DNA of 64,000 bases from Escherichia coli 042 (GTDB taxonomy: Bacteria; Pseudomonadota; Gammaproteobacteria; Enterobacterales; Enterobacteriaceae): NCBI RefSeq assembly GCF_000027125.1, contig NC_017626.1. One strand, 5' to 3'. Position numbers and translations under genes: made by a program. The notes under the pieces were generated by a model, which saw only the letters and a list, made by a program, of their open reading frames with translations, was not told the DNA's origin and made no database searches. How positions within the stretch are numbered: the first letter of the stretch is position 1; the number at the start of each line of letters is the position of its first letter. Shown one piece after another: positions 3,446 to 51,545 of the stretch.

Positions 3446-4534
3446 TTACGCCAGTACGCCAATTGCCAGCGCGCGATCGATAAAACGAAATATCAGCTCC
3501 AGTTGGGAGCCATACTTATCTTCAAATGCCACTGTATCCGTATGCAGCTCGTTGTGATGCTTTCTGCACAAAGGCAACACAAAGAGATCATGTGCTTTTG
3601 TTCCCATTCCGCCCTGCCCGTGACCAATCAGATGATGCGGATCGTCGGCTGGCATACCGCAGCAAGCACACGGCTGTGTCTTAACCCAACGTGTGTATTT
3701 CTCCTTAACCCAGCGGCGACGTTTAGGCAGCTTCATGAAAGATTCCGGAGACTCTGGATCAACGGTGATGCTTACCACCGTCTTTTCCTGTGGTGATTTT
3801 TGTTGCTGGTGGGCGTAAGGCAACGGTGCAAGATTTTTTGTGCGTTGTTTCAATATGCTGGTGGCGGTCTGCTCTCCCGGTACGATGTCGCTTTCGCGGT
3901 ACACCGAGCAGATTTTTTCCGCTGGTAATCCCAGCGAACGACGCGATACAGCCTCAGGTAGTGCATCCACCACCTGATTGCAGACCGCCCACCAGGATAA
4001 TTCAGCCAAAGATAATTCCCGCTCCTGCGTACCGCTTATTGCGTGACGGATGACGTCAATCACCCATGCTGTCAGATTTTGTTGAGCAAGCAGCTCCAGT
4101 GATTCCGATGTCTGGTCACGCAGTTGGTTGTCGCAGTGCCAGCACAACACCATTGCGCCGGTACCATAACGGTGAATGACTGTTTCAGTGTGATGGTAAT
4201 CGCCATTAGGCCACTGGCAGGATGTAACATGACGTAATAGCCAGTCGGACAATGCGCCAACGCCGCCAGCAGCACGAATCACCCGTTCGTTACTAAAAAA
4301 CGGCAGCAATGTTTTGTCTTCCGCCAGCGGCTGGCGAACGGCAGGAACGACTCCGGATGGCAGATTACGCATGCTTTTTGGTTCCGGTTCCACCAGCACT
4401 CGAGGATTATGAAATATCTGTATGGATTCACGGCCCGGCTTAAGGACCACCAGCCCAAGCTCAGGCACCAGAACAGGTCTAAGTAATACCCGCACGTTAC
4501 CTCCAGATCCGTTGCTGGAAAGTGCGGGACGCAC
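3446..4534 (-). CDS. ydfU: Qin prophage protein YdfU (DUF968-type, C-terminal HNH-like H..H..C motif); start uncertain
   Basis: ORF-track protein recognised (..LLRPVLVPELGLVVLKPGRESIQIF..). C-terminus CACCGMPADDPHHLIGHG...LCRKHHNELH. Confidence 0.8.
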   Translation of the reverse strand: MRPALSSNGSGGNVRVLLRPVLVPELGLVVLKPGRESIQIFHNPRVLVEPEPKSMRNLPSGVVPAVRQPLAEDKTLLPFFSNERVIRAAGGVGALSDWLLRHVTSCQWPNGDYHHTETVIHRYGTGAMVLCWHCDNQLRDQTSESLELLAQQNLTAWVIDVIRHAISGTQERELSLAELSWWAVCNQVVDALPEAVSRRSLGLPAEKICSVYRESDIVPGEQTATSILKQRTKNLAPLPYAHQQQKSPQEKTVVSITVDPESPESFMKLPKRRRWVKEKYTRWVKTQPCACCGMPADDPHHLIGHGQGGMGTKAHDLFVLPLCRKHHNELHTDTVAFEDKYGSQLELIFRFIDRALAIGVLA

Positions 4535-40530: not shown

Positions 40531-40594
40531 TTTCACTTAACGCATTGATTTAATTAAATGATTTGCACTACAAAAAGTGCCATAAATCGCAAAA

Positions 40595-40616
40595 TGACTA
40601 CACCAGTGACTACACC
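40595..40616 (+). repeat. Tandem TGACTACACC x2 (arm-type integrase site candidate), left arm
   Basis: TGACTACACCAGTGACTACACC is identical to 51396-51417. Similarity continues for ~35 more bp (..TCGgTGCAC.., ..ACAACGTGgAACA..). Confidence 0.6.
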
Positions 40617-40934
40617 GTTCGGTGCACTGTATGAAACAACGTGGAACAAATAGACACAAGAAATATACAGGCGGGTCATCTTTCCAGGGGGAAGCGCGCT
40701 AATTCATGAGGGGCGTTAATGTTGATATGGGGATCCCCATAACGGGGCTACCGGATTTTTTTTCCGGTTAACTGTTAATCAGGCTGGTGGGCTTTACCTG
40801 TTTTGTAGGAGTGGTCATTATGACCATTCAGACAATGACCTTAATCAGAACTTTTCGCTAAAAAATGACGTTGGTCACGTCGTCCGGAAAGCACAAAATC
40901 CCGTCAATTTTTAATTAACGGTTAAACCGTCTTT

Positions 40935-40980
40935 TGTCACGGCGTGTCACTGGTTGTCACTCTCCGTCACGGTATGTCGC
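40935..40980 (+). repeat. Five TGTCAC-type hexamers at exact 10-bp phasing
   Basis: TGTCAC 40935, TGTCAC 40945, TGTCAC 40955, CGTCAC 40965, TGTCGC 40975. Lies directly 3' of the 93-aa gene. Confidence 0.7.
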
Positions 40981-40986
40981 TACTCG

Positions 40987-41268
40987 TTAACGCCGTAACC
41001 GCTCCGGCTTCTTCCAGTGGTACGTAATTTTCTCCGTTTCCCGATACAGTGCCACGCGGCGATTGTAGGCCAGCATTTCAAGAACGCGGATCCGTATGTT
41101 GCGCATATCCACATCATTAAGCTGGATACCATCACGGCGCATCACCTCAGCAACCACACGCGCGTAATTTTCGGCGGTCACGCTGTCCGGCTGCGTGGCC
41201 TGTTCGTCATGCTGCTGGCTGATTCCGGTAACGCGGCGGATTAATCCCAGTAGTTCGGCTTCTGTCAT
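40987..41268 (-). CDS. Hypothetical island protein (93 aa)
   Basis: ORF 40987..41466 trimmed to ATG 41268 behind a GGGGG RBS. The upstream part of the long ORF is just translation of the cos repeat. MTEAELLGLIRRVTGISQQHDEQATQPDSVTAENYARVVAEVMRRDGIQLNDVDMRNIRIRVLEMLAYNRRVALYRETEKITYHWKKPERLRR. Confidence 0.55.
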   Translation of the reverse strand: MTEAELLGLIRRVTGISQQHDEQATQPDSVTAENYARVVAEVMRRDGIQLNDVDMRNIRIRVLEMLAYNRRVALYRETEKITYHWKKPERLRR

Positions 41269-41301
41269 TGTGCCCCCATCGCTCTGATAGTCTGGTGTCG
41301 T

Positions 41302-41365
41302 CGGGTCCTTCCTGGAATTATGGCCCGTTACGGGGCGGCGACCTCGCGCGTTTTCACTATTTATG
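41302..41365 (+). other. Lambda-type cos site, copy 1 (cosN GGGCGGCGACCT at 41333-41344)
   Basis: CGGGTCCTTCCTGGAATTATGGCCCGTTACG|GGGCGGCGACCT|CGCGCGTTTTCACTATTTATG. This closely matches the recalled lambda right end ..GTTACG, the 12-nt cohesive end, and left-end nt 13-33. Confidence 0.8.
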
Positions 41366-41382
41366 AAAATTTTTCGGGATCC

Positions 41383-41479
41383 ATGTCCGGTTTCTCTGCA
41401 AGTTAACCATATGAAAAATATAAAAACATGCTTTCCATGAACCGGACATGCGCAAAAAACAGACACTAAAACCGGACAT
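41383..41479. promoter_or_regulatory. cosB-like array: three copies of ATGTCCGGTT (one forward, two inverted) around an AT-rich spacer
   Basis: ATGTCCGGTT 41383-41392; AACCGGACAT 41440-41449 and 41470-41479. AT-rich 41397-41430 sits between the first and second. Confidence 0.6.
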
Positions 41480-41547
41480 CGAACCAGTTAACCGAAAGTG
41501 TGCACAAATCACATGCATTGCTGCGAGTGATTAACAAGTTATCGGCT

Positions 41548-41982
41548 TTACTGTTCTGTATCGGCTGATTGCTCCATGCTGGCACGGCGAACGCTTATGG
41601 CATGACGCCACCCAGCCAGAAAGCCAGCCATTTTATTTCGTGCCTTGCTCACATCTTCCGGTGAATAGCCGTAAATCTGCAAACCTTCATCAAATCGATG
41701 TTCTGTTTCTTCACTGGAGTACTCGTCACGCTCAGATGAAAGCAGCCTGGCAAACATAATTTTTTCCAGCGCACTGGTTTCTACGTGATATCTGATGGTC
41801 TCAAGACGGCTTTTACCTGAAGACCAAAGCAATGTATGCCCGATGTGATAACCGCCAGACTTTCCGCGATCCGCATTAAGATACGGCATCCCCTGTTTGG
41901 TCCATGCGCGAATAGTGGTTCTGTTAACCTTGAAATGTTCAGCTATTTCCTGCTGACTTACAAAACAAGCTTTATCAATCAT
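41548..41982 (-). CDS. Nu1-like small-terminase-type DNA-binding protein (144 aa): N-terminal winged HTH, unrelated C-terminus
   Basis: FVSQQEIAEHFKVNRTTIRAWTKQGMPYL aligns by eye with lambda Nu1 VNKKQLADIFGASIRTIQNWQEQGMPVL. The gene starts ~70 bp from cos copy 2, as Nu1 follows cos in lambda. Confidence 0.7.
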   Translation of the reverse strand: MIDKACFVSQQEIAEHFKVNRTTIRAWTKQGMPYLNADRGKSGGYHIGHTLLWSSGKSRLETIRYHVETSALEKIMFARLLSSERDEYSSEETEHRFDEGLQIYGYSPEDVSKARNKMAGFLAGWRHAISVRRASMEQSADTEQ

Positions 41983-42050
41983 AATGTTACCTTAACTGCA
42001 TGGTTAAATATTAATCAAGTGGTGGTGGTGTCACCTTCACGGAAAAACGT

Positions 42051-42114
42051 CATAAATAGCGAAAACCCGCGAGGTCGCCGCCCCGTAACGGGCCATAATT
42101 CCAGGAAGGACCCG
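42051..42114 (-). other. Lambda-type cos site, copy 2, inverted (cosN complement AGGTCGCCGCCC at 42072-42083)
   Basis: The reverse complement is identical to copy 1 except 2 positions. Its CGCGGGTTTTCGCTATTTATGA matches the recalled lambda left end exactly. Confidence 0.8.
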
Positions 42115-42115
42115 T

Positions 42116-42138
42116 AAAAAAGCCGGATTTCTCCGGCC
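42116..42138 (-). terminator. Rho-independent terminator of the capsid operon
   Basis: Minus strand GCCGGA-GAAA-TCCGGC followed by TTTTTT. Same module at 44389-44410 and 44751-44773. Confidence 0.7.
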
Positions 42139-42143
42139 TTGTC

Positions 42144-42557
42144 TCAGATGTTTTTCAGTATGCGATCGATGTCGCCGTCATCGCCCTGGTTTCTGCCATC
42201 GTATGCCATGCCAGCTGATACGGCTTGCGGGCTGTGCATGTCCATAAAGTTTTCAAAGGCTGCGGTAAGTTCCGGCGCAACCTTCGGACGTTCCTGCTCT
42301 ATGGTCATGCTAAGGATGCTTTTAGCCGTACCAACATCGATACAAGGCACGTTTGCCATTGCACGCAACAGCGGCTGATAGTCTTTATGCTCATGAAGCG
42401 CCATAATCGCATCAGCGCGCGGCTTGTCCTGCTCTTCCAGTTTGTTTAGTTGATGTACGGCCTCATAGGTTGATAAACCTCTGTCAGCCATTGCCCGCGC
42501 TTCGACTTTAAATTTACTCGCCAGCGGTAGCGTCATGATGCTTTCATTCGTTGCCAT
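42144..42557 (-). CDS. Hypothetical island morphogenesis-operon protein (137 aa)
   Basis: Last gene of the capsid operon. MATNESIMTLPLASKFKVEARAMADRGLSTYEAVHQLNKLEEQDKPRADAIMALHEHKDY... No family recognised. Confidence 0.6.
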   Translation of the reverse strand: MATNESIMTLPLASKFKVEARAMADRGLSTYEAVHQLNKLEEQDKPRADAIMALHEHKDYQPLLRAMANVPCIDVGTAKSILSMTIEQERPKVAPELTAAFENFMDMHSPQAVSAGMAYDGRNQGDDGDIDRILKNI

Positions 42558-42569
42558 CGTTCCCCCTGC

Positions 42570-42905
42570 TTATCGGGCCAGCGGCTGAACGGATACGCCG
42601 GAACCCGCAAAGGCGGCGCATTTTTTCGCATCGGTGTCGACGCTCTCAGGCCAGTTAACGGCGGCAATATTGAATATCCCCGTCTTGTAACACTGTGCTG
42701 ATTTCTGCTTTGACGTGTCCACAGGGTACGAGGTCAGATAAACAGCCTTGCCAGATTCCTGACCATCCCACGGCTTAAACTCGCCATTGTCTGCCAGCAT
42801 CAGCGGGGTAAATTCCTGAATAACGCCAGCATCAGCGGCAAAATGTACCAACGTCGTGGATACCTGCTGACTGCCTGCAAATAACTCAATGTATGGAGTG
42901 TCCAT
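42570..42905 (-). CDS. Head decoration protein, lambda gpD family (111 aa)
   Basis: TPLMLADNGEFKPWDG..., YKTGIFNIAAVNWPE..., KKCAAFAGSGVSVQP parallel lambda gpD TPLMLDTSSRKLVAWDG, YKSGTFRYEDVLWPE, KKRTAFAGTAISIV (recalled). Confidence 0.8.
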   Translation of the reverse strand: MDTPYIELFAGSQQVSTTLVHFAADAGVIQEFTPLMLADNGEFKPWDGQESGKAVYLTSYPVDTSKQKSAQCYKTGIFNIAAVNWPESVDTDAKKCAAFAGSGVSVQPLAR

Positions 42906-42917
42906 AGAATCCCCCCG

Positions 42918-43973
42918 TTAACCAATTTTGACGGTAACAAATTTGCGAATATCTGCCGGTACCGGCTGCGGTGCACTGTGTGTCTGCACGTACTCAATCG
43001 CCGGATCGCCGTCCTCAATCCAGTTTTTCGGGTAAAACATGTTTTGTGTTGCGCCCGTTCTTACCGCTTCCTGATCCATTATCGCACCATAGGCCACCAG
43101 CCCTTTATTGTTGGTGTTACCCAGGACCAGCAAATCAGGCTCAAGGAAATATTTTTCGGTACCATCGCTGTCAGTGTATTTGCCGGAATAGACGATAAGG
43201 GCCAGATCACCAAGATAGCCTTTAAAGCTCACCACTTCGCCCAGGTTTTTACAGGCCAGTTCGGCGGCGGATTCTGAACCACGGGAAAGATCGTACAGCT
43301 CACGGAATTTTTTAAAGCTGCGTAATGTGCGCCATACCTCAGCGCCCATAATCATGACGTTTGCGGGGCAACCAGCCTGATCAGCATAAAGCTCGATGTC
43401 ATAGATTGGGTCGTGCATGTCTTTATCCTGCTCGGACCATTTTTTACCCTTGGCCTGCTCTATGATGCAGTTTTCCGGTATTTTCCAGTCGATTTCATAG
43501 CGTTCTATGCCTTCGCCCTCAATGATGTTTTTTCCGGTCGTTACCGCATTCACCGCCAGCCATTCCACGCGTGCCTTAATGGCGTTTATCTGGCGGCGCA
43601 TGTTGCCAGTAATCAGGCGCATACGGCGATAGGTAGGGTCGTTAAGCTGTGCCGGATCTTCTCCAGCCATGCGCATGATGGTTTTCGTTGGATCGATTTC
43701 GTGCTTTGGCTTCATGTAGCCAGGTTTGATTGTGCTGGTTTCGTACCCTTTATCGCGCTGAACCTGGCTACCCACCATAGGCGAACAAAACGCCGACATG
43801 GTGACTTCTTCAATGTCCAGGGTATCCAGCATGATGTTTTGCGTGCTGAATGTCGCCACGTTCGGGAAAAACAGCGTGGTAAACAGAGGGCTGAATTTAA
43901 AATCCGCAATATCCCCGCGATTCAGGTACATGAAAAGCTGGTTAGTGTTAAGTGCCGTTGCTTTGCCTGCCAT
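42918..43973 (-). CDS. Major capsid protein, lambda gpE family (351 aa)
   Basis: Blocks PGYMKPKHEIDP, DPTYRRMRLI, YSGKYTDSDG..KYFL, LVLGNTNNKGL.AYG, YPKNWIEDGDPA, SAP align with lambda gpE PGYVKPKHEVNP, DPAYRRRRII, YSGQYVENGVKKNFL, MVLGNTQARGLRTYG, YPKNWVTTGDPA, SAP (recalled). Confidence 0.9.
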   Translation of the reverse strand: MAGKATALNTNQLFMYLNRGDIADFKFSPLFTTLFFPNVATFSTQNIMLDTLDIEEVTMSAFCSPMVGSQVQRDKGYETSTIKPGYMKPKHEIDPTKTIMRMAGEDPAQLNDPTYRRMRLITGNMRRQINAIKARVEWLAVNAVTTGKNIIEGEGIERYEIDWKIPENCIIEQAKGKKWSEQDKDMHDPIYDIELYADQAGCPANVMIMGAEVWRTLRSFKKFRELYDLSRGSESAAELACKNLGEVVSFKGYLGDLALIVYSGKYTDSDGTEKYFLEPDLLVLGNTNNKGLVAYGAIMDQEAVRTGATQNMFYPKNWIEDGDPAIEYVQTHSAPQPVPADIRKFVTVKIG

Positions 43974-44382: not shown

Positions 44383-44388
44383 GGGCGC

Positions 44389-44410
44389 AAAAAAGCCGGA
44401 TTGCTCCGGC
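44389..44410 (-). terminator. Rho-independent terminator (copy of the GCCGGA..TCCGGC module) after the 74-aa gene
   Basis: Minus strand GCCGGAGCAATCCGGC + TTTTTT. Confidence 0.65.
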
Positions 44411-44430
44411 TATGTGTGCTGTGTGCTGGC

Positions 44431-44655: not shown

Positions 44656-44750
44656 TGTTTTTTTCCTCTGTTGTGTCTGTTTGTTTCAGATAGTAACTAT
44701 GCCTGACCGTGACGAAAACCCGGTAATGCGCCATACCGTTTCAACTGGTG

Positions 44751-44773
44751 CAAAAAAAGCCGGATTTCTCCGG
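44751..44773 (-). terminator. Rho-independent terminator after the PerC-like gene
   Basis: Minus strand GCCGGAGAAATCCGGC + TTTTTTT. Confidence 0.7.
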
Positions 44774-44781
44774 CTGTTTGA

Positions 44782-45734: not shown

Positions 45735-45925
45735 TCTCACTTTTTCGCCTCACTTTTTCAAGCGTCTCACTTCGTCGCAGTTGGGATTTTCGGTTTTTCT
45801 ATGTGTGTGTTTCATAAGTATTTTTTTACCCCTCACTTTTGAGGATGTATACAGGTCGAAAAGTGAGGGAGAGCGGGCTAATTTTGGCCCTCTTTCTATC
45901 CCCCTCGCTTTTGCTCCTCACTTTT
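45735..45925. repeat. Iteron cluster CTCACTTTT (6 direct or near-direct copies plus 1 inverted): putative island replication origin
   Basis: Direct copies at 45736, 45749, 45766 (CTCACTTCG), 45832, 45904 (CTCGCTTTT), 45917. Inverted copy at 45858-45869. AT-rich stretch 45781-45830. Directly 3' of the rep gene. Confidence 0.65.
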
Positions 45926-47324
45926 ATAGCGGCGCTACATCATCCCCATCGATACGAATAACCCCATCTTTTTCCAGCTTGTACAGCCAGCGCCGGAAGT
46001 TTTTCATTTCATACCCCAGCTTTTTCATGTCATCACGTAACAGCGGGATCGTGCACTTGTCGCCGTTCTGTGTGCGTGAACGGATGCACCCCCATAGCGC
46101 GGTATGGTTTTCCGTCTTGTTCCCTGCCTCCTCGATGCGCTCCAGTTCAACAGGAGGGCGCGGATCATCCACCACCACCAGCGACGTGATTAATTCACCG
46201 TCAGCGTCGGTAAAAAGCTCCACCACGCGTAAGTCATATGCGGCTTCTTTGAGTTCCTCCGCGTCCTTCATTTTGGTGCATGAGATAACCAGCGCTTCGC
46301 TTCCTGCGTCCTCCCTGCGTATCCGGTATTCAGCATCCAGCGAAGCACGAAATGCACTGGAACCGCGCGCGCCTTTCGTCTCATCCTTGCCGGAATGGTG
46401 AACCACCAGCACCGTGGCCCCTGTGCGTCGTTTCAGTTCGTCACAACCACGGATAAACGCCCCCATATCACGGGAATCATTTTCATCATTCCCACCAAAG
46501 CAACGCGCCAGCGTATCCAGAATAATCATGCGTACAGGTTTACCCGTTTCCCGCTCCACCTGACGGGCAGCGATAACCATTTCATCAACATCAAGCGGGG
46601 CAGCCGGAAAGATGGGGCGGTTTACCAGATACAGATTTTTCACCTGCTCATCGTGCACAACCTCCCAGGCTTTTACACGACGCGGAACACCTATACCGCC
46701 TTCACCAACCACATAGAGAACCGCACCATGTGCAACCCTGCGGCCTCCCCACTGGCGACCAGTGGCAACATGGCACGCCCACGATCCAGCAAGGAATGAT
46801 TTATAGGACCCGCTAGCCCCGTATATGCTGCATAGCGATACCGCCGGAATAATCCCCTTAACCACGTAATCCAGTTGCGTGTCGTATCCGGTAGATCCAA
46901 CGCTCATCGGTAGCGTGGTTTTTCGCTGGTGTTTTTTTTCTTCCGCCGGCTCTTTCCCGCGCACCCGTTCCAGGTATTCGCGCCAGTTCTCCCGCATATG
47001 GCTGTGCATCCCTTCGGGGTAATAATTCGCATCAGTTACACCCGCCGCCGCCAGCTTGTGCGCAATGGCATTAATATTTGATGGCCTGATGTGGCCTGCC
47101 TTGTACAGCCGGACACAATAGCGCCCCTCGTCGATGATTCTCAGGTCTGCCAGTTCATCCAGTTGATCATCAGCCAGCACAACGGGAGGCACATTATCGC
47201 CAGCCAGTCGCCCGTCCTGTTCCTGCCACTGTTTCGCATGTGCCCAGGCATCACTACCCGCAAAAATAATGACTTCGGTCATCTTGTCGTAAGGCTGTTT
47301 TTTTAAGTTCGGTGCGCTTTTCAT
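45924..47324 (-). CDS. Replication initiator ATPase (RecA/RepA-like AAA_25-type core, C-terminal wHTH), 466 aa
   Basis: Walker A GASGSYKS, Walker B MIILDTLARCFGG, VLVVHHSGKDETKGARGSSA sensor region. C-terminal basic wHTH-like tail. Confidence 0.8.
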   Translation of the reverse strand: MKSAPNLKKQPYDKMTEVIIFAGSDAWAHAKQWQEQDGRLAGDNVPPVVLADDQLDELADLRIIDEGRYCVRLYKAGHIRPSNINAIAHKLAAAGVTDANYYPEGMHSHMRENWREYLERVRGKEPAEEKKHQRKTTLPMSVGSTGYDTQLDYVVKGIIPAVSLCSIYGASGSYKSFLAGSWACHVATGRQWGGRRVAHGAVLYVVGEGGIGVPRRVKAWEVVHDEQVKNLYLVNRPIFPAAPLDVDEMVIAARQVERETGKPVRMIILDTLARCFGGNDENDSRDMGAFIRGCDELKRRTGATVLVVHHSGKDETKGARGSSAFRASLDAEYRIRREDAGSEALVISCTKMKDAEELKEAAYDLRVVELFTDADGELITSLVVVDDPRPPVELERIEEAGNKTENHTALWGCIRSRTQNGDKCTIPLLRDDMKKLGYEMKNFRRWLYKLEKDGVIRIDGDDVAPL

Positions 47325-50140: not shown

Positions 50141-51370
50141 TTATTTTCTTCTGGCTACTGGTAGCGTGGTTACGTTTTCATGTGTTCCCGCCAGTATCCC
50201 TAACCGCTCCGTCCACATATCCAGCGCATTGCGTTTAGCATCCAGATAACGGGAATGATTATAAACTCGCTGCATTCCTGGCATCTGGTGGCCTGTAAGC
50301 TGCTCCACGACATGCGGATCAACGCCTAAATCGTTCAGCATGGTTGTAAAGGTGCGCCGGATGTCATGCAGTGACCAGTGAGGATGATTAAGCCTCCTGT
50401 GCGCTAATCTTCCATACTGCGATACGCTGGCCTCCTGTTTCACTTCCCCCAGCAATAAGCCCGTGTGCCTGTTCTGCTCCACCAGCTGCGTGACGAACGG
50501 CAGGATCGCTTCCGGTATGGGCCGGAATATTGCGACCTTCGTTTTGCTGTGCTCCTTCGGAACGGTCCATAGCATTTCCGTAAAATCCCACTCCCCGATC
50601 TCCGATAACCTCAGTTCTACCGTTCTGGCTCCGAAGACAATCAGGAGGCGGATTAACGCGACGTAGTAAGGGGAGAATATTTTTTTGTCCAGTGCCTGCA
50701 ATAATTCGCCAAGTTCTTTGTTACTTAAGACACGTTCGCTTATATCCGGTTTTTTCCCAACGTCCGCCACGTTCAGATCGTCCAGAACGTTGCTGATTGC
50801 ATAGCGCCGCCTACGGCAGAACTTAAGCGCCTGTTTGCACGCCTGTAGCACGAATCCGGCAGTAACAGGCGTTCGCTTTGCCACCTGGTCAAAACAGGCC
50901 AGCCAGTGCCGTAGCTCGCATTTATCCAGCGGCATAGCACCAATCTGCTGTATTACGTGATTATTAAGTCGCCTTTTCAGGGCGATATAATCCACGCGGT
51001 TTTCCTTTACGTAATACTCAAGCCAGTAGGTGAGCGCATCGCCAACCGTTACCGGCTTTAACGCTTCCTGTACGGTGTAATTAAGCTCATGACGTGGATT
51101 TTTCCCCTCTGCCAGCCATGCGCGACACTGGGCGGCTTTTTCCCTGGCTGATTTCAGGCTCAGATCAGGATAACTTCCCAGCTTAATGCGTTCGGGTCGT
51201 GTCTCCCTTCCCGTTCCGGCCCTGTATGTGAAATACCAGGTCAATTTCCCTGATGTTAAATATTTCACGCTCAGGTTTCCGCCATCACTATAAAACGTGT
51301 TTTTCTCCGCTGGCTTACCATGAAGTTTCCTTAGCAAGGTATCGCTCAGTTTGTTCATTGCTCTGCTCAC
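50141..51370 (-). CDS. int: P4-type tyrosine integrase (DUF4102 arm-binding N-terminus), 409 aa, GTG start behind GAGGGGG
   Basis: N-terminus ..LSDTLLRKLHGKPAEKNTFYSDGGNLSVKYLTSGKLTWYFTYR... Catalytic ARTVELRLSE (R), HDIRRTFTT (H..R), GHQMPGMQRVYNHSRY (H..Y). Confidence 0.9.
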   Translation of the reverse strand: MSRAMNKLSDTLLRKLHGKPAEKNTFYSDGGNLSVKYLTSGKLTWYFTYRAGTGRETRPERIKLGSYPDLSLKSAREKAAQCRAWLAEGKNPRHELNYTVQEALKPVTVGDALTYWLEYYVKENRVDYIALKRRLNNHVIQQIGAMPLDKCELRHWLACFDQVAKRTPVTAGFVLQACKQALKFCRRRRYAISNVLDDLNVADVGKKPDISERVLSNKELGELLQALDKKIFSPYYVALIRLLIVFGARTVELRLSEIGEWDFTEMLWTVPKEHSKTKVAIFRPIPEAILPFVTQLVEQNRHTGLLLGEVKQEASVSQYGRLAHRRLNHPHWSLHDIRRTFTTMLNDLGVDPHVVEQLTGHQMPGMQRVYNHSRYLDAKRNALDMWTERLGILAGTHENVTTLPVARRK

Positions 51371-51395
51371 GTTTTACCCCCTCTTTACGAAAAAG

Positions 51396-51417
51396 TGACT
51401 ACACCAGTGACTACACC
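51396..51417 (+). repeat. Tandem TGACTACACC x2 (arm-type site candidate), right arm, just upstream of int
   Basis: Identical to 40595-40616. Confidence 0.6.
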
Positions 51418-51545
51418 GATCGTTGCACAAAGGGCTACAACGTGAAACAAGCTGGAACAAGGAAAATCACAAATCTGTTGATAATCAAAAACATAATGCA
51501 CAGCCTGAAACATTATGAAACAGCAAAAAACACCAAATGATAAAA

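Follow-up and report, generated by a model that had tools for sequence, protein, structure and literature searches.

Known cos modules of phage satellites

The locus described here, a pair of lambda-type cos sites in inverted orientation around a small gene, lies in a 64-kb stretch of Escherichia coli 042 DNA (64,000 nucleotides, contig NC_017626.1; hereafter the window). Its closest described relative is the packaging module of the island EcCICFT073, which has two cos sites whose cosQ and cosN are similar to those of lambda and phi80 and whose cosB is unlike either (PMC6092414). Either cos site alone lets lambda and phi80 transfer a plasmid, and transfer of the island itself was strongly decreased without cos1, increased without cos2, and abolished without both (PMC6092414). 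The island protein RppA (c1503) binds phage TerS, and the resulting heterodimer loses recognition of the phage cosB and gains recognition of the cosB of cos1; RppA dependence is carried along when cosB segments are swapped (PMC6739421). RppA does not stimulate cos2, and deletion of c1503 restores lambda plaques, with interference mapping to rppA alone (PMC6739421). Helper TerL cuts at cosN, and RppA-TerS bound at cos1 blocks phage packaging and redirects packaging to the island, running from cosN towards cosB into phage-sized heads that contain about three island units each (PMC6739421, PMC6092414). EcCICFT073 is said to have no capsid morphogenesis genes and to use the phage-sized heads (PMC6092414). 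The reason for the presence of two sites is a question left by Fillol-Salom et al. in 2018 and 2019 (PMC6092414, PMC6739421).

Helper-type cos copies are also present in SaPIbov4, SaPIbov5, P4, and the helper-embedded phage-inducible chromosomal island (PICI) 11capE, which belong to different phage families; the 258-bp cos region of 11capE is 90% identical to that of its helper. SaPIbov4 was cited as a further satellite with two putative cos sites (PMC6092414). The premise of the initial annotation of the window, namely one cos site per satellite, is contradicted by this citation and by the publication of cos1 and cos2 of EcCICFT073 in 2018. None of these four satellites has been reported to carry an Rpp-specific and a phage-cognate cos inverted around a specificity gene.

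Identity of the locus in the window

Positions 41250–42170 of the window (921 nt) were 98.7% identical to positions 1387470–1388391 of E. coli CFT073, with 12 differences in 921 positions and none in the cosB of either site. The CFT073 island around the match encodes an integrase, regulators, a primase, a single-stranded DNA-binding protein (SSB), a major-capsid homologue, and a head-decoration homologue, in the same gene order as in the window. This island is EcCICFT073, the model Gram-negative PICI. Both cos sequences of the window match the published cos1 and cos2 (Fig. S1A in the supplement of PMC6739421). The copy at 42051–42114 (copy 2) corresponds to cos1, because the published cos1 continues TATTTATGACGTTTTTCCGTGAAGGTGACACCACCACCAC into ATGATTGATAAAGC, and is located directly upstream of rppA; the copy at 41302–41365 (copy 1) corresponds to cos2, because the published cos2 continues TATGAAAATTTTTCGGGATCCATGTCCGG.

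Judged by these sequence matches, the cos pair and the small gene are the cos1/cos2 and rppA packaging module of the EcCICFT073 family. Since this module has already been published and experimentally dissected, the observation is a correct rediscovery and a claim of novelty finds no support. The word 'inverted' occurs in neither main text (PMC6092414, PMC6739421), and the orientation is implicit in the printed cos sequences. The window island shares with EcCICFT073 the inverted arrangement and the gene neighbours (a 93-aa open reading frame (ORF), a 137-aa ORF, and gpD-like and gpE-like genes). EcCICFT073 sits next to phoQ, whereas the window island is in tqsA, and the perfect arm repeat of 25 nt in EcCICFT073 is extended to 47 nt in the window, where the cosQ-side arms are identical to each other.

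A near-identical module was found in the same orientation in 82 complete E. coli genomes and with its inner segment inverted in 15 others (97 in all). The initial annotation had allowed, as a fallback, that the second cos might be a duplication specific to this strain; this, or an assembly artefact, has practically no probability left. It is refuted by the 82 and 15 complete genomes, which come from many laboratories, and by the cloning, deletion, and experimental testing of the sites in CFT073 (PMC6739421, PMC6092414), and no support for it was found.

Geometry of the inverted cos pair

A repeat search detected one long inverted repeat in the region, 41302–41379 and 42037–42114, with a length of 78 nt, 91% complementarity, and a spacing of 657 nt. 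Re-alignment of 41302–41365 with the reverse complement of 42051–42114 gave 62 shared bases out of 64, the same count as reported initially for this span, and the longest perfect run between the two arms was 47 nt. Two exact copies of the 12-mer GGGCGGCGACCT, and no more, are present in the window, at 41333–41344 (+) and 42072–42083 (−), against a chance expectation of about 0.22, and the looser cos signature GGGTCC...TTATGA was found at these two sites only. The parts of the module are as follows.

41302–41332, plus strand: cosQ-side arm of cos2, left arm of the inverted repeat, with GGGTCCTTCC at 41303–41312; matches Fig. S1A of PMC6739421
41333–41344, plus strand: cosN of cos2, exact match to GGGCGGCGACCT
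41345–41479, plus strand: phage-type cosB of cos2, placed by the phage match and the element positions
41362–41374, plus strand: I2-like TATGAAAATTTTT in the cosB of cos2
41382–41390 (forward) and 41442–41450 (reverse): R-like elements CATGTCCGG of cos2
41472–41479 (reverse): R-like element CCGGACAT of cos2
41548–41982, minus strand: rppA (redirecting phage packaging protein A), 144 aa, the sole ORF between the arms
41902–42041, minus strand: cosB of cos1, placed by the phi80-chimera primers; overlaps the 5′ end of rppA and holds promoter-like hexamers
42019–42031, minus strand: ACACCACCACCAC at the R3 position, +53 to +65 of cos1, a candidate element for recognition by Rpp-TerS
42072–42083, minus strand: cosN of cos1, exact match to GGGCGGCGACCT
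42084–42114, minus strand: cosQ-side arm of cos1, identical to the cosQ side of cos2 in the window

Comparison with lambda (NC_001416) showed that copy 2, read on the minus strand, is exactly lambda nt 1–34 and that copy 1 has two mismatches to lambda within nt 1–34, which bears out the initial recognition of a lambda cohesive end and of an exact lambda left end in copy 2. The cosN is the same as that of lambda, the cosQ-like GGGTCCTTCC is located about 30 nt upstream, and the lambda order of cos followed by a helix-turn-helix (HTH) gene is mirrored by cos1 and rppA. The R3, R2, and R1 elements of the lambda cosB (CGTTTCC core) are absent from both copies; instead, CATGTCCGG-type elements are found in cos2 and ACACCACCACCAC in cos1. 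Thus, a non-lambda cosB stands beside a lambda-type cosQ and cosN in both copies, in agreement with the published statement.

The GGGTCCTTCC boxes face outward (41303–41312, +; 42104–42113, −) and the cosB-proximal sides face inward, as had been described from the letters alone. Two inverted lambda-type cos sites around a Nu1-like gene are therefore real, given the 78-nt inverted repeat and the exact cosN at both places. The segment from cosN to cosN is 751 bp, and by this geometry cutting at both cosN would release a 751-bp fragment with the same 5′-GGGCGGCGACCT overhang on both ends.

cos2 resembles the cos of PhiR12-type phages

Positions 41302–41479 (178 nt), a span that includes all of the repeat triad of cos2 along with its cosN and cosQ side, were 93.3% identical to PhiR12_1, PhiR12_2, PhiR12_2_star, PhiR12_4, and PhiR12_5, and the cosB part, 41380–41479, was 99% identical to the PhiR12-type phage. 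The matching sequence of PhiR12_1 is the phage's own cos, because the genes on either side of it are Rz (lysis) and Nu1 (terminase). The same cos was found in E. coli prophages upstream of the gene for a 169-aa TerS, WP_000235436 or WP_000235451. The PhiR12-type TerS shares with lambda Nu1 the C-terminal half alone (46% over 92 aa), and its N-terminal DNA-binding region differs, which fits a distinct cosB specificity.

Counted from the start of cosN, the R-like elements of cos2 are at +51 (forward), +110 (reverse), and +140 (reverse). R3, R2, and R1 are at +53, +111, and +155 in lambda and at +50, +107, and +150 in phage 21; the elements of cos2 thus occupy the R3 and R2 positions. The match to PhiR12-type phages (PV340549; TerS WP_000235436) runs from the cosQ side up to and including the second CCGGACAT element. 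In the phage, the TerS gene begins 49 nt after the site, whereas in the island the 3′ end of the oppositely oriented rppA follows after +147. At the level of sequence, these results show that cos2 reproduces the cosQ-cosN-cosB of PhiR12-type lambdoid phages completely and almost without change. A search for packaged island DNA among deposited 'phage' records, whose ends would reveal the cuts, returned cos matches only and no such record.

An authentic phage cosB on cos2, together with the 751-bp fragment carrying the same overhang at both ends, could be taken to mean that cos2 is a decoy or terminase trap, which titrates unmodified terminase or, upon a double cut, yields a dead-end 0.75-kb fragment and so adds to interference. 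We consider this improbable, because the published interference maps to rppA alone (PMC6739421) and the cosB of cos2 matches that of PhiR12-type phages and not those of the studied helpers lambda, phi80, and CFT073 phi4.

cos1 and RppA

The primer ends of the published phi80 chimera, CGTGAAGGTGACACC and CAGAACCACTATTCGCGCATGG, map to 42027–42041 and 41902–41923, respectively, and bound the Rpp-responsive cosB. The whole cos1 spans 42114 to 41902 on the minus strand, into the 5′ end of rppA. Its 140-bp cosB segment is identical to that of CFT073, and from this identity recognition of the window cos1 by RppA-TerS is predicted, as is the high-frequency, helper-mediated transfer that experiments showed for CFT073. 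No phage match to the cosB of cos1 was found beyond about +83, and this cosB appears to be island-specific. In every rpp locus compared (RppB, Klebsiella, and Salmonella), the upstream cos is followed by a conserved ACACCACCACCAC, which may be the element that Rpp-TerS recognizes. The sequence CGTTTTTCCGTG, in which the initial annotation had seen a resemblance to lambda R3, was rejected as such a determinant, since it is outside the cosB segment, bounded by the chimera primers, that confers Rpp dependence in the phi80 chimera.

The idea that the two cos sites differ in cosB specificity is backed by the published experiments (PMC6739421, PMC6092414) and by the phage matches. The specificities had initially been hinted at the wrong way round: the phage-type site is copy 1, which has the repeat triad, and the island-specific, Rpp-dependent one is copy 2.

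The window protein was identical to CFT073 RppA (c1503) at 142 of 144 residues. It matched the structure of RppC (Redirecting phage packaging protein C; 6HLK/6HN7) with E=4.5e-31 and the DNA-binding domain of lambda TerS weakly, with E=0.06–0.1; it is the N-terminus that resembles the Nu1 DNA-binding domain. The published DNA-contact residues (R21, T22, R25, and K29) and the dimer residue F121 are present and are invariant in the Rpp alignment. Pfam searches with RppA gave sub-threshold HTH matches only. The 144-aa gene is assigned on these grounds to rppA, encoding a Nu1-like, TerS-derived protein with a winged-HTH N-terminus. According to the published structure, the N-terminus of Rpp shares the DNA-binding fold of lambda Nu1, whereas the TerL-binding C-terminal half of Nu1 is absent from Rpp, which cannot act without phage TerS. 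A word-indexed protein search detected 17 Rpp relatives, and a scan of one genome per species with the Rpp alignment gave 154 pattern matches, none of which was confirmed by tblastn.

The cos-rpp-cos arrangement in other islands

Rpp loci for comparison were gathered by exact-protein look-ups. An RppB-type island, whose protein is 82% identical, has an inverted repeat of 72 nt (78%), again with arms 657 nt apart. In the cosN region, its two copies are unlike lambda and unlike each other, and register alignment with lambda suggests that they would form different cohesive ends. An identical RppB protein was accompanied by different upstream cosN-region variants (GGGTACGTGTACGCGC at position 3871 of locus L006 and GGGGCGGCAGACGCGC at position 1633 of locus L009) and by the same downstream cos, which suggests exchange of cos modules separately from rpp. 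The search for a phage counterpart of the RppB downstream cos gave one weak match, in the nu1 region of SerU-LTIIb (80% over 70 nt). Taken across these loci, the cos-rpp-cos architecture is conserved and not strain-specific.

One Salmonella enterica record (ABGJYY010000047.1; locus L014, 3576–4429) contains a helper-embedded island adjoining prophage FI and tail genes, in which two tandem rpp paralogues, RppC-like and RppA-like, stand behind one cos with the variant cosN GGGGCGACGCGCT.

Recombination between the arms and a natural inversion

Seven of the 12 differences between the window and CFT073 cluster at 42093–42116, on the cosQ side of cos1. The outer arms differ from each other in CFT073; in the window, cos1 has acquired the same cosQ-side sequence as cos2. 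Relative to CFT073, this indicates a tract of gene conversion.

The 15 genomes with the inverted segment were found with a query whose inner segment had been flipped in silico; all were complete genomes, matched with 100% coverage in a single alignment piece. In one of them, WP4-S17-ESBL-08, the island occupies the same site as in CFT073 and keeps its gene order, with rppA on the opposite strand. Its segment is identical at 751 of 751 positions to the reverse complement of that of CFT073, and the breakpoints are precise and inside the arms. When this allele was flipped back in silico, it matched nine other genomes with 100.0% identity over 1551 nt. Five inverted genomes were fetched (WP4-S17-ESBL-08, EC21Z-144, CUVET16-394, MSB1_7A, and AREA_499, representing Japan, China, Thailand, Australia, and the USA), and they differed by 0–1 single-nucleotide polymorphism over about 18 kb including the chromosomal flanks. 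All 15 inverted genomes had the same match score, and the chromosomal flanks of uninverted carriers were 1.8% divergent from those of the inverted clone. Since the five fetched genomes are one clone and the 15 scores are equal, one inversion event explains the data; recurrent inversion, or a fast switch, was rejected for the same reason. Among the RppB modules of 11 genomes, none was inverted. The inverted clone also carries IS200C copies at icd and has no lambdoid prophage there, unlike CFT073 and the uninverted carriers examined.

The initial annotation had listed inversion of the intervening gene among its options. The inversion itself was found, in 15 genomes; a switch was not demonstrated, and the five fetched genomes represent a single fixed event. 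That the cos pair is a programmed invertible element controlling rppA expression or packaging direction is, in our judgment, highly improbable. The occurrence of both orientations in complete genomes, the exact 751-of-751 inversion, and the same allele uninverted at 100% speak for it, and inverted repeats with both orientations are what switches of the fimS and Hin/Gin types have. Frequent switching within a lineage was not seen, however, in that all five fetched genomes keep the inverted state, as judged from assemblies, which do not reveal mixed populations. The absence of inverted RppB modules from the 11 genomes also speaks against a switch. Neither in the segment nor beside it was a dedicated invertase gene found: rppA is alone inside, the neighbouring 93-aa and 137-aa ORFs have no recombinase domains, and the island integrase is 8 kb away. 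The promoter-like hexamers of rppA (42034–42007 and 42007–41978) are inside the flippable segment and a terminator-like hairpin is outside it; therefore, inversion need not change rppA expression.

The crossover of the observed inversion lies between −30 and +16 of cosN, an interval that includes cosN and is equally compatible with cutting and religation and with RecA- or Red-mediated homologous recombination over the 47-nt identity. A bolder proposal, which we regard as doubtful, is that the module is a recombinase-free invertible cassette: terminase would cut at both sites, the 751-bp fragment would re-anneal and be ligated either way, and the combination of an Rpp-dependent cos with a swappable, phage-cognate one in Rpp islands would be deliberate. 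If this were true, the fixed inversion would be a trace left by terminase in the role of a site-specific invertase, and the pairing with a phage-cognate cos would widen the helper range.

A model for two packaging origins

We consider it likely that the locus is a PICI packaging module with two packaging origins for two TerS specificities and that the inversion is a by-product of recombination, not a switch. In this model, cos1 would be Rpp-dependent and serve helpers whose TerS can be hijacked by RppA, and cos2, as a cognate phage cos, would be directly usable by PhiR12-type terminase. In lambda, packaging terminates only where cosQ is upstream of cosN in the direction of translocation. Terminase started at one cos of the island would meet the other with its cosQ on the wrong side, and the inverted orientation should therefore prevent the origins from terminating each other's packaging runs. 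The arms, with 47 identical nt, would recombine as a by-product, which would have homogenised the cosQ sides in the window allele and flipped the 751-bp segment in one clone.

Several points weigh against this model. The argument on termination is taken over from textbook lambda biology, and the benefit of cos2 to the island is putative. Deletion of cos2 raised, and did not lower, transfer by lambda and phi80 (PMC6092414). If RppA also neutralises PhiR12-type TerS, cos2 would be useless during rppA expression. Beyond +147, a point within a palindrome, cos2 is no longer homologous to the phage cos, and the forward R1-like CATGACCGGTTT of the phage is lost; cos2 could thus be a slightly crippled site. 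Furthermore, the rpp islands of Klebsiella and Salmonella have a single cos, upstream of rpp.

Because of the cos2-deletion result, the lost R1-like element, the single-cos islands, and the question of RppA acting on PhiR12-type TerS, appreciable weight stays with another explanation, though we think it unlikely: cos2 may be a functionless or mildly harmful passenger, left over from the recombination with a PhiR12-like phage by which the module was built or remodelled, and kept solely by tight linkage to rppA and cos1. The lack of stimulation of cos2 by RppA (PMC6739421) and the truncation of the phage homology also fit such a relic. What a relic leaves unexplained is that the cos-rpp-cos order with 657-nt spacing is kept in the RppA islands of 97 genomes and in RppB islands despite different cosN. 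In addition, with 99% identity to a live phage site, the cosB of cos2 is not decaying, and both sites are functional on plasmids (PMC6739421, PMC6092414). We therefore continue to prefer two origins for two TerS specificities.

The island around the module

The following features surround the module.

40591–40666 and partner 51392–51467, no strand: island-end direct repeat (att-like), 76 nt, 76% identity, the first ~27 nt near-identical
40987–41268, minus strand: conserved 93-aa island ORF outside cos2, hypothetical in CFT073 and relatives, no Pfam match
42117–42142, minus strand: terminator-like hairpin and T-run, GCCGGAGAAATCCGGC at 42122–42137 followed by TTTTTT, −18.3 kcal/mol
42144–42557, minus strand: 137-aa island ORF, no Pfam match
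42570–42905, minus strand: homologue of the lambda gpD-like head decoration protein (PF02924, E=5.1e-18)
42918–43973, minus strand: homologue of the lambda gpE-like major capsid protein (PF03864, E=5.5e-50)
50141–51370, minus strand: island tyrosine integrase, 409 aa, from the ORF list; an integrase is at the equivalent position in relatives

The att-like repeats are 10801 nt apart and delimit an island of about 10.8 kb within tqsA, which is split in the closest annotated genome. A search for att sites as exact 12-mers found none, and the imperfect 76-nt repeat was found afterwards. The integrase, the att-like repeats, and a gene content like that of annotated relatives are those of a PICI, and the virion genes are the gpE-like and gpD-like genes only. 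These two genes are present in the window island although EcCICFT073 is described as lacking capsid morphogenesis genes (PMC6092414).

At the replication-gene position, the window island has a 466-aa ORF (45924–47324, −) for an AAA_25-type replication protein, and the protein encoded there in the RppB island L006 is of the AAA_25 type, with 468 aa, whereas EcCICFT073 in CFT073 and the closest match to the packaging module have a 584-aa primase. Since its replication gene is unlike that of CFT073, the window island is a mosaic of modules.

The terminator-like hairpin ends the upstream capsid-gene transcription unit just before cos1. It belongs to a 30-nt hairpin and T-run element present three times (42113–42142, 44386–44415, and 44750–44779), with 80–87% identity and each copy 3′ of a minus-strand ORF; the three elements look like repeated intrinsic terminators that would split the late region into transcription units. 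Five GTCAC/GTGAC repeats were found in a run at 40935–40985, at the end of the island just past the 93-aa ORF, and are conserved in the RppB island (L006, 4985–5035). They could be arm-type or iteron-like binding sites.

Significance for satellites and their phages

Three modest additions to the published picture arise from this comparison: the phage identity of cos2, the conservation of the architecture across cosN types, and a natural inversion together with a gene-conversion tract. The latter two events show that the two sites recombine, which is relevant to the engineering of islands as delivery vehicles. The module as a whole is the route by which widespread satellites of E. coli hijack lambda-like phages: by the published mechanism, one small protein re-targets the terminase, and with the terminase re-targeted the phage is blocked and the island is spread at once.

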